Below are positions 16,957 through 17,404 of a stretch of DNA of 42,427 bases, piece by piece. Numbering within the stretch: position 1 is the first letter of the stretch; every line of letters starts with the position of its first letter. This DNA comes from a virus. Lineage: Duplodnaviria; Heunggongvirae; Uroviricota; Caudoviricetes. The position numbers and the translations under genes were made by a program. The stretch spans positions 1 to 42,427 of the IMG/VR virus record IMGVR_UViG_2563366875_000004. One strand, written 5' to 3'. Below the pieces are notes generated by a model. The model saw only the letters and a program-made list of their open reading frames with translations, had not been told where the DNA came from and made no database searches.

Positions 16957-17032
16957 GCCGACTTAGCTCAGTAGGTAGAGCAACTGACTTGTAATCAGTA
17001 GGTCACCAGTTCGATTCCGGTAGTCGGCACCA
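16957..17032 (+). tRNA. tRNA-Thr (anticodon TGT), 76 nt with encoded CCA
   Basis: Cloverleaf readable: acceptor GCCGACT/AGTCGGC, D-loop AGTAGGTAGAGC, anticodon loop CTTGTAA, T-arm GGTTCGATTCC, CCA end. Confidence 0.85.
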
Positions 17033-17035
17033 TAT

Positions 17036-17110
17036 GCGGGTATCGTATAATGGCTATTACCTCAGCCTTCCAAGCTGATGATGCGGGTTCGATTCCCGCT
17101 ACCCGCTCCA
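17036..17110 (+). tRNA. tRNA-Gly (anticodon TCC), 75 nt with encoded CCA
   Basis: Acceptor GCGGGTA/TACCCGC, anticodon loop CTTCCAA, T-arm GGTTCGATTCC; 3 nt after tRNA-Thr; close to E. coli glyT as recalled. Confidence 0.85.
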
Positions 17111-17379
17111 GCAGAGGACGATAGATACTAGGTTGTGTTAGGCACTGACACATTTTATGTGGGGCGTTTTTCCTGACTCCTTACCTCGCCCTGTACTGTA
17201 ATGAGTGATATCGGTTGCAGCACCAGTGCCGTTTTTTACGCCACCGGAATGGTGCATTATTGGTAGAGATTTGCAATGTCTCTGGCAGGGGCCGGTGATG
17301 CATCATTCTGGTGTTGTAAATAACACCATGACATTGAGATTAATCATATATTAAGCAAAACCTGGAAACACATCCTTAA

Positions 17380-17404
17380 CCGCCTCCACCAGGCGGTTTT
17401 TTTT
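17380..17404 (+). terminator. Intrinsic terminator downstream of the tRNA pair
   Basis: CCGCCT-CCACC-AGGCGG followed by T8. Confidence 0.6.

Follow-up and report, generated by a model that had tools for sequence, protein, structure and literature searches.

A tRNA-Thr/tRNA-Gly cassette in the Q-to-lysis gap of a lambdoid Escherichia coli prophage carries a two-domain structured trailer, a candidate new RNA family

In the gap between the antiterminator gene Q and the lysis genes, insertions of cargo known as 'morons' are tolerated by lambdoid phages (Tree et al. 2014, PMC4104026). A tRNA cassette lies in this gap, between Q and the holin genes, in the lambdoid E. coli prophage analysed here (IMG/VR virus record IMGVR_UViG_2563366875_000004; its whole length of 42,427 nucleotides (nt) is referred to as the window). 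An earlier interpretation made from the letters of the DNA, the sequence-only reading, described two adjacent tRNA genes followed by a structured segment that is not a tRNA. As phage cargo, the pair itself is of an ordinary kind that has been annotated before. The question raised by the locus is what the following segment, here termed the trailer, is: a spacer, a processing element or an RNA in its own right. The explanation that we favour on balance, with modest confidence, is a self-contained tRNA cassette, or moron, that combines codon-supplying tRNAs with a processed, stable trailer RNA that has a specific partner. The parts of the cassette, and the signal that precedes it, are as follows.

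16738-16759 (+): terminator-like hairpin and T-run (CCGCCGCCAGGCGG then TTTTTTTT), closing the preceding unit; aligned in relatives
16867-16894 (+): sigma-70-type promoter-like site, TTGAAA-16-TAATAT, with 9/12 matches; predicted start near 16901
16903-16953 (+): predicted 5' leader hairpin, ending 3 nt before tRNA-Thr (centroid fold of 16895-17405)
16957-17032 (+): tRNA-Thr(UGU), CCA encoded (ARAGORN; Rfam RF00005, 73.8 bits)
17036-17110 (+): tRNA-Gly(UCC), CCA encoded (ARAGORN; Rfam RF00005, 65.6 bits)
17111-17140 (+): A/U-rich spacer, unpaired in folds and varying in sequence among relatives
17141-17230 (+): domain 1, a cloverleaf-shaped four-way junction; nearly invariant closing stem GGCACUG/CAGUGCC with three hairpins inside
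17232-17237 (+): conserved U6-7 tract between the domains; invariant T columns, of which 17235-17237 are the hairpin base
17235-17320 (+): long bulged hairpin of 29 bp (6-bp base and 23-bp lower stem) with several G.U pairs
17321-17377 (+): A/U-rich tail with a small hairpin, kept in a subset of relatives
17378-17405 (+): strong intrinsic terminator (AACCGCCUCCACCAGGCGGUU then U8), ending the cassette and conserved in both major lineages

The sequence-only reading had reported an imperfect 16-bp inverted repeat in the trailer. Its arms are present (17242-17257 and 17298-17313) and match at 14 of 16 DNA positions, both mismatches being G.U pairs in RNA, but the repeat understated the structure, of which it is only the core: the hairpin has 29 bp. 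This main hairpin was not reported by a gapless inverted-repeat finder because the G.U pairs leave no 6-nt exact seed. Within the window it contains a 1x1 mismatch site, a conserved 7-nt bulge on the 3' side (GGCAGGG, 17284-17290) and a 6-bp apical stem (17265-17270 with 17278-17283). Positions 17225-17335 folded at -49.4 kcal/mol (z = -6.2), as good a fold being found for none of 200 shuffled sequences, and positions 17111-17405 folded at -106.9 kcal/mol (z = -5.3).

All homologues share the shape of this hairpin (mean z = -6.65). A base of 6 bp (UUUACG/UGUAAA) is followed by a 1x1 mismatch site and a lower stem of 22-23 bp; above these come an apical stem of 5-6 bp and, on the 3' side, a bulge of 7-9 nt ((C/U)UGGCAGGG). 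Energies lie between -33 and -50 kcal/mol. When 34 distinct hairpins were aligned with MAFFT, which is blind to structure, 94.5% of the cells were paired, as compared with 36-56% when the partner was slid. Most substitutions replace G.U by G-C or A-U; at one position the pairing is A-U for 17 sequences, G-C for 10 and G-U for 3. Depending on the lineage, the apical stem reads AGAGA/UCUCU, GGAGA/UUUCC, AGGUU/AACCU or GGGCU/AGCCC. Further compensated variants, such as GGGAUGG with CCAUCCC and AAUAGUGC with GCACUAU, were recovered with a second search pattern.

The structure described as a single segment is real, but a second domain (17141-17230) had been missed, and the module has two domains. 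The minimum-energy fold of this domain 1 was a four-way junction in the large majority of 27 distinct homologues (mean z = -3.75), a few of which (e.g. L057, L077 and L121) lose or re-pair one arm. The junction is closed by a stem that is nearly invariant as GCACUG/CAGUGC among these homologues. Its three inner hairpins are kept in shape, their sequence and length being too divergent between lineages for alignment with MAFFT. From the raw alignment RNAalifold recovered, with compensatory changes, the closing stem and portions of two of the hairpins, and a covariance model built only from one lineage, the 'Rac-type', matched the window lineage end to end (17140-17231). In the domain-1 alignment fitted to the model, 91.5% of the cells were paired and 23 of 31 pairs changed on both sides, a result reached by none of 500 shuffles. 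The topology is a cloverleaf, with a four-way junction and a closing stem of about 7 bp. The arms are not of tRNA size, the second having a 20-nt loop and the third 9-11 bp, and domain 1 was recognised neither by ARAGORN nor by RF00005. The earlier statement that the downstream segment does not fold as a tRNA was borne out for all of 17111-17404, which drew no ARAGORN or tRNA covariance-model call.

Three further pairings were considered. In the third hairpin of Rac-type sequences (L013, L031, L065, L037, L121 and L123), a G-to-A change in CUGGCU is matched by C-to-U changes in both GGCCAG and UAGCC, and G.U intermediates of these pairings occur in other sequences, which hints that two mutually exclusive pairings are both maintained. 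An alternative pairing of the 3' strand of domain 1 with the 5' arm of the hairpin (repeats I1 and I2) is weakly present in the other lineage. A tertiary pairing of CCCUGU in the junction with GCAGGG in the bulge was rejected: the junction variants UCAGU (L020/L104) and UCCGU (L031/L065) have no matching bulge changes and are compensated inside the second hairpin instead.

The fold is specific to one strand. The plus strand folded 11-13 kcal/mol more stably than the minus strand in 26 of 27 domain-1 sequences and in 9 of 10 hairpins, which points to an RNA made in the direction of the tRNAs.

BLASTN searches matched 17111-17420 in 401 of 5426 complete E. coli genomes (~7%), the most widely shared core of the trailer being 17211-17328. 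Carriers include the much-used strains 042, APEC O1, W and E24377A, and at least 119 IMG/VR contigs were found to carry the module by a pattern scan. Within a one-genome-per-species collection, matches occurred in E. coli and Shigella flexneri only, under a strict pattern that does not establish absence elsewhere. A tRNA-Gly(tcc) gene lies 125-144 nt upstream on the same strand in 126 of 133 trailer copies; three of the seven exceptions are truncated by the contig end, and the two that were examined (L099 and L029) have tRNA-Gly further upstream. Both the antiterminator family and the lysis cassette beside the module come in two different kinds, and the module therefore moves together with the tRNAs as one unit. 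The Thr-Gly pair occurs without the trailer in some phages (hits H3-H6).

The spacing within the module also varies. Insertions of 1-1.4 kb in L099 (~7142-8330, minus strand) and L029 (2366-3780, plus strand) separate tRNA-Gly or domain 1 from the hairpin, and so the two trailer domains can be split; the L099 insertion contains a 75-aa open reading frame (ORF). The Rac-type lineage has an extra ~140 nt between hairpin and terminator (L006 2609-2755, plus strand), absent from the window, with several predicted hairpins that include a terminator-like one at 2700-2716.

Positions 17111-17330 gave no gathering-level match in Rfam 15, and E values up to 10 yielded noise-level microRNA models only. 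The AgvB and AsxR models likewise gave no match with E up to 10. CyaR/RyeE (RF00112) matched the 3' tail together with the terminator (17334-17403, plus strand) at 31.3 bits, where the gathering score is 47 (E = 0.0017 with 1.2 kb searched); being sub-threshold, this match is a resemblance only. Like Hfq-dependent small RNAs (sRNAs), the tail is rich in A and U and has a long run of U's at its end. A retron non-coding RNA (ncRNA), in which a long msd hairpin comes after short ones and a reverse-transcriptase gene lies directly 3', was considered and rejected: a terminator and then holins follow, and no reverse-transcriptase domain was present among the neighbouring ORFs scanned. The trailer is put forward as a candidate for a new family of structured RNAs in prophages of E. 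coli and Shigella, moderately novel in kind.

ARAGORN identified exactly two tRNA genes in the whole window, with anticodons tgt and tcc and a 3-nt spacer between them, and both exceed the RF00005 gathering score of 29, which confirms the adjacent pair as first described. The sequence-only reading had also likened the pair to members of the host thrU-tyrU-glyT-thrT operon. This likeness is accurate for the mature tRNAs: tRNA-Thr is identical to K-12 thrU (76/76), and tRNA-Gly matches K-12 glyT at 73/75 positions with the acceptor stem intact. The two differences make up a single compensatory acceptor-stem pair, C6:G67 in glyT and U6:A67 in the phage, and relative L008 retains the host version. 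Identity elements for glycyl-tRNA synthetase (GlyRS) are G1:C72, C2:G71, G3:C70, U73, C35 and C36, from which the change at 6:67 should be neutral. The likeness fails for the flanks. No homology was detected between the flanks, the 3-nt spacer or the trailer and the host thrU-tyrU-glyT-thrT-tufB region, or between the trailer and thrT, the glyT-thrT spacer, the tufB leader or the tyrU-glyT spacer of the host. Because host likeness is restricted to the mature tRNA sequences and the flanks are unrelated, the cassette, judged by its sequence, is not a recently copied piece of the operon. Its tRNAs would be functional near-copies of thrU and glyT, and enter the explanation of the cassette as such.

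Codon usage was compared between 37 window ORFs (a crude, hand-filtered set of longest ORFs) and a small sample of 42 annotated K-12 genes, and the effect was large. ACA was used 16.2 times per 1000 codons in the window and 5.4 times in K-12 genes (odds ratio 3.0, Fisher p = 3e-17), and GGA 15.1 and 6.0 times (odds ratio 2.5, p = 1e-12). ACG, GGG, AUA and AGA were enriched too, and the 22 late ORFs alone behaved in the same way as the full set. The sequence-only reading had proposed this comparison and named an absence of bias as the result that would count against it; a 3.0-fold and a 2.5-fold enrichment were found. In relatives, the Thr-Gly pair is preceded by tRNA-Ile2(CAU) together with tRNA-Arg(UCU) or tRNA-Lys(UUU), and these additional tRNAs likewise read A-ending codons. 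AUA and AGA are rare codons in E. coli. A codon-supply role for the tRNA pair is supported.

An own promoter had been proposed for the pair. The site is present as described, and relatives have TATAAT, TATCAT or TATTAT in the place of its -10 element; taken alone, the site does not exceed chance. In four-tRNA arrays, TTGCAA-17-TATTAT or TTGAAA-16-TATTAT stands immediately 5' of the first tRNA. Promoter activity at 16867-16894 is a prediction. A leader comparable to that of the window, with a different stem sequence, was seen in L006 and L007 (judged by eye). As regards the features of a moron, which is a transcription unit of its own set into a phage operon, the terminator is strong and conserved and the placement between Q and the holins was confirmed; the promoter-like site, with 9/12 matches, occurs at chance frequency.

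These parts suggest an order of events. Reading from 5' to 3', the cassette would consist of a sigma-70 promoter, a leader hairpin, tRNA-Thr, tRNA-Gly, the two-domain trailer and the intrinsic terminator at 17378-17405. In a lysogen it would be read from its own promoter and stopped at its own terminator, leaving the downstream holin genes silent; the layout suggests that polymerase modified by Q and coming from PR' would run through it in lytic growth. The primary transcript would be ~505 nt long (~16901 to ~17405). RNase P and RNase E would release the tRNAs, with the A/U-rich spacer (17111-17140) as the likely endonuclease entry site for 3' maturation of tRNA-Gly, and the tRNAs would raise the supply of decoders for ACA/ACG and GGA/GGG, codons that the phage uses 2-3 times more than host genes. 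RNase E would free the trailer by cutting the A/U-rich spacer and perhaps the U-tract, with RNase III possibly acting on the long helix as well, and the trailer would persist as one or two stable ncRNAs that bind a specific partner.

A released, stable RNA that binds a specific partner is preferred here to a mere spacer on account of what has been conserved. Sequence itself is conserved in the lower helix, the GGCAGGG bulge, the U-tract and the closing stem, and the other helices are kept as shapes only. Several points weigh against this explanation. The promoter match is at chance level when taken alone, a scan having found 5 promoter-like sites with 4.5 expected. All homologues come from Escherichia and Shigella prophages and are related, so that part of the covariation amounts to a few lineage events. 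The Rac-type model detects the window lineage marginally (17.4 bits, E ~0.06), and the alignment behind the 91.5% figure, having been fitted to the model, leans towards it. The first pattern used to collect hairpins fixed parts of the lower stem, the second leaving both lower-stem arms unconstrained. Finally, the tight linkage to tRNA-Gly would also follow from a purely cis-acting role.

Such a role is the main rival, and we consider it unlikely while giving it real weight. The trailer would be a purely cis-acting device for processing or insulation, an RNase III site severing the tRNA segment from the late lysis and structural mRNA, and no RNA would act in trans; in a sib-like variant of this idea, the helix would form in read-through transcripts only. 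The domains would also shield the new 5' end of the mRNA or the 3' end of the tRNA precursor. The substrate length required by RNase III is established, at some 20 bp or more of near-continuous double-stranded RNA, and the modelled 23-bp lower stem with its 6-bp base would be long enough. The module lies downstream of tRNA-Gly and upstream of the lysis genes, and U6-7 comes directly after the domain-1 closing stem in the manner of a terminator tail, the same U's being the base of the long hairpin. However, a strong terminator follows the module, so that in lysogens it is not joined to the lysis mRNA. A simple cleavage or stability element also needs no near-invariant bulge, lower stem and closing stem while other helices drift, and it leaves the four-way junction without an obvious role.

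Another interpretation, which we hold to be quite doubtful, is that junction and bulged helix form a dedicated prophage ncRNA, a tRNA mimic or decoy or a protein scaffold, which is released from the tRNA precursor and either manipulates an anti-phage tRNA nuclease or a host factor that handles tRNAs, or assembles with the co-encoded tRNAs.

It is very unlikely that domain 1 is a conditional terminator or attenuator, similar to a riboswitch, in which formation of the closing stem beside the U-tract would halt transcription before the long hairpin, as decided by a ligand, a tRNA or a protein. A 7-8-bp G+C-rich closing stem followed by U6-7 is present in all lineages, and the G-to-A change in CUGGCU, matched in two possible partners, hints at exclusive pairings; this triple covariation is, however, based on very few lineages. 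Intrinsic terminators are normally simple hairpins, whereas the 'loop' here would be a three-hairpin junction of ~75 nt. Few junction nucleotides are conserved, unlike in known aptamers, and there is no gene to be controlled between domain 1 and the next terminator.

That the segment acts as DNA, whether as a recombination or mosaic junction, a miniature inverted-repeat element or a protein-binding palindrome, is highly improbable. It does lie at a mosaic boundary of different Q and lysis modules, and the insertions in L099 and L029 fall inside it. Against this, the fold is strongly strand-asymmetric through its many G.U pairs, with the minus strand weaker by the 11-13 kcal/mol given above; one-sided changes are nearly all from G.U to G-C or A-U; and the segment is found in a single copy per prophage and in one orientation relative to tRNA-Gly, rather than dispersed.

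A small protein encoded by the trailer is scarcely credible. RefSeq leaves the trailer unannotated or labels it a hypothetical protein, PGAP having made such calls where the match lies in some genomes, and a 49-aa ORF with a GTG start is present in the window at 17205-17354. No ORF is conserved across the trailer lineages, however: length, frame and start vary (49 aa in the window, 103 aa in L005 and fragments of 30-35 aa in L006), indels of 1, 2 and 5 nt within the trailer distinguish the lineages, and substitutions track base-pairing, not codon position. The hypothetical-protein calls are probably spurious. Hardly tenable, finally, is the notion of two functionless remnants, with a third, decayed tRNA gene in domain 1 and a chance palindrome in the hairpin: the cloverleaf topology, the 7-bp closing stem and the longer tRNA arrays of relatives would fit it, but the extra tRNAs of relatives lie upstream of tRNA-Thr and not at the position of domain 1, neither ARAGORN nor the tRNA model gives a signal, thrT and the host spacers show no similarity to it, and selection is evident from the covariation and from persistence across lineages whose helices cannot be aligned.

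The cassette stands among the following neighbours.

Upstream of the cassette, before Q: DUF968 protein and RusA
14714-15109 (+): antiterminator Q (PF06530)
15150-15226 (+): isrK-like RNA (74.3 bits)
15254-15338 (+): C4-type antisense RNA (77.2 bits)
15373-15954: ORF6N antirepressor-like gene
16000-16545 (-): ORF between the ORF6N gene and the cassette
17773-18430: two holins, downstream of the cassette
After the holins: M15 peptidase endolysin, HNH endonuclease and large terminase (TerL)

Upstream, the isrK and C4-type RNAs lie directly 3' of Q and 5' of the ORF6N gene, an order that presumably resembles the isrK-anrP arrangement of Gifsy-1. The RusA ORF (14362-14820, plus strand, 152 aa) overlaps the Q ORF by ~107 nt in a different frame. 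Because the Pfam match to RusA is limited to residues 8-109, the 3' extension of this ORF may not be genuine coding sequence. Further upstream, a strong match to the sok antitoxin RNA family (12148-12319, plus strand; 108.3 bits) indicates that the prophage has a toxin-antitoxin locus of the hok/sok type in its early region.

Just 3' of the cassette, two intrinsic terminators ~30 nt apart face each other (17378-17398, plus strand, and 17452-17428, minus strand), a layout conserved in the other lineage (L006 2756-2775, plus strand, and 2830-2807, minus strand). A minus-strand RNA ending near 17428 is possible on these signals, and a candidate minus-strand promoter, TTAAAC-16-TAATAT, was read by eye near 17600-17570. 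A 32-aa ORF on the plus strand (17530-17628, MKKNKYRSPSGDELILLSFKNGLNPQIDLNFR) is of equal length in L001, L006 and L005. It shows synonymous changes, including CGG to AGA, is frameshifted in L003, and overlaps a covarying hairpin (UCUCC/GGAGA vs CCCC/GGGG); it may represent a small protein, an RNA or both. A further terminator-like hairpin (GGGCCGCTGGTGGCCC then a T-run) is located at 17732-17747 on the plus strand, 25 nt 5' of the holin start, and is kept in relatives with a different lysis cassette; it probably serves as one more barrier to transcription running on into the lysis genes.

Phage tRNAs are familiar cargo in the late region of lambdoid prophages, and the value added here is a covariation-supported, strand-specific trailer fold of ~180 nt without an Rfam family. 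The nearest precedent by position is presumably the set of tRNA genes ileZ-argN-argO in the Q-to-lysis moron slot of lambdoid prophages, for example those encoding Shiga toxin. The position is the same, downstream of Q and PR' and upstream of the lysis genes, both sets read A-ending codons that are rare in the host, and relatives of the present cassette also have tRNA-Ile2(CAU) and tRNA-Arg(UCU) upstream. The present cassette differs in its tRNAs, Thr(UGU) and Gly(UCC), and in its conserved two-domain trailer, of which no description was found in those papers that were searched.

We count among the closest analogues in kind 3'ETS-leuZ, an sRNA sponge from the host glyW-cysT-leuZ operon, and RNAs C and D of T4, which are stable products of a tRNA cluster. 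These are non-tRNA RNAs that are co-transcribed with tRNAs, released by processing and bounded by a terminator, which for the trailer is a prediction made by analogy. There is no sequence relation, and the trailer is much more structured than 3'ETS-leuZ. The lambda sib/tI retroregulation hairpin and the RNase III sites of T7 are long helices in phage RNA. Each, like the trailer as modelled, has a near-perfect helix with internal asymmetry, an adjacent terminator-like U-tract and an antiterminated transcript; the trailer helix differs in being preceded by a four-way junction, there is no homology, and cleavage of the trailer is putative.

Other RNAs are known from similar places. The Pas sRNAs (PasA, PasC and PasD1/D2) are intergenic RNAs of enteropathogenic E. 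coli (EPEC) prophages, adjacent to holin or lysozyme genes and often with tRNA genes nearby (PMC8550237; bioRxiv 10.64898/2026.05.13.724894). PasA and PasC are on the strand opposite their neighbours, and identity with Pas sRNAs was rejected when BLASTN found no similarity between 16600-17800 of the window and the PasA, PasC and PasD2 loci of strain E2348/69. Convergent sRNA genes have been described in the lambdoid moron slot (Tree et al. 2014, PMC4104026). The window has convergent terminators there, and the models for AgvB and AsxR found no match, as noted above.

ROOL and GOLLD are large structured RNAs of phages and prophages, often located near tRNA islands, whose function is unknown (PMC12286853). 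They too are among the closest analogues in kind: they and the trailer are alike in being phage- or prophage-borne structured ncRNAs physically linked to tRNA genes. ROOL and GOLLD measure ~580-800+ nt, contain pseudoknots and form multimeric cages, whereas the trailer is ~180 nt long and has no sequence or model match to them. Were the tRNA mimic or scaffold interpretation true, the trailer would be a small enterobacterial counterpart of these RNAs. It is genetically tractable in common laboratory strains of the best-studied bacterium, and could offer an experimental handle on why phages put structured ncRNAs beside tRNA genes.

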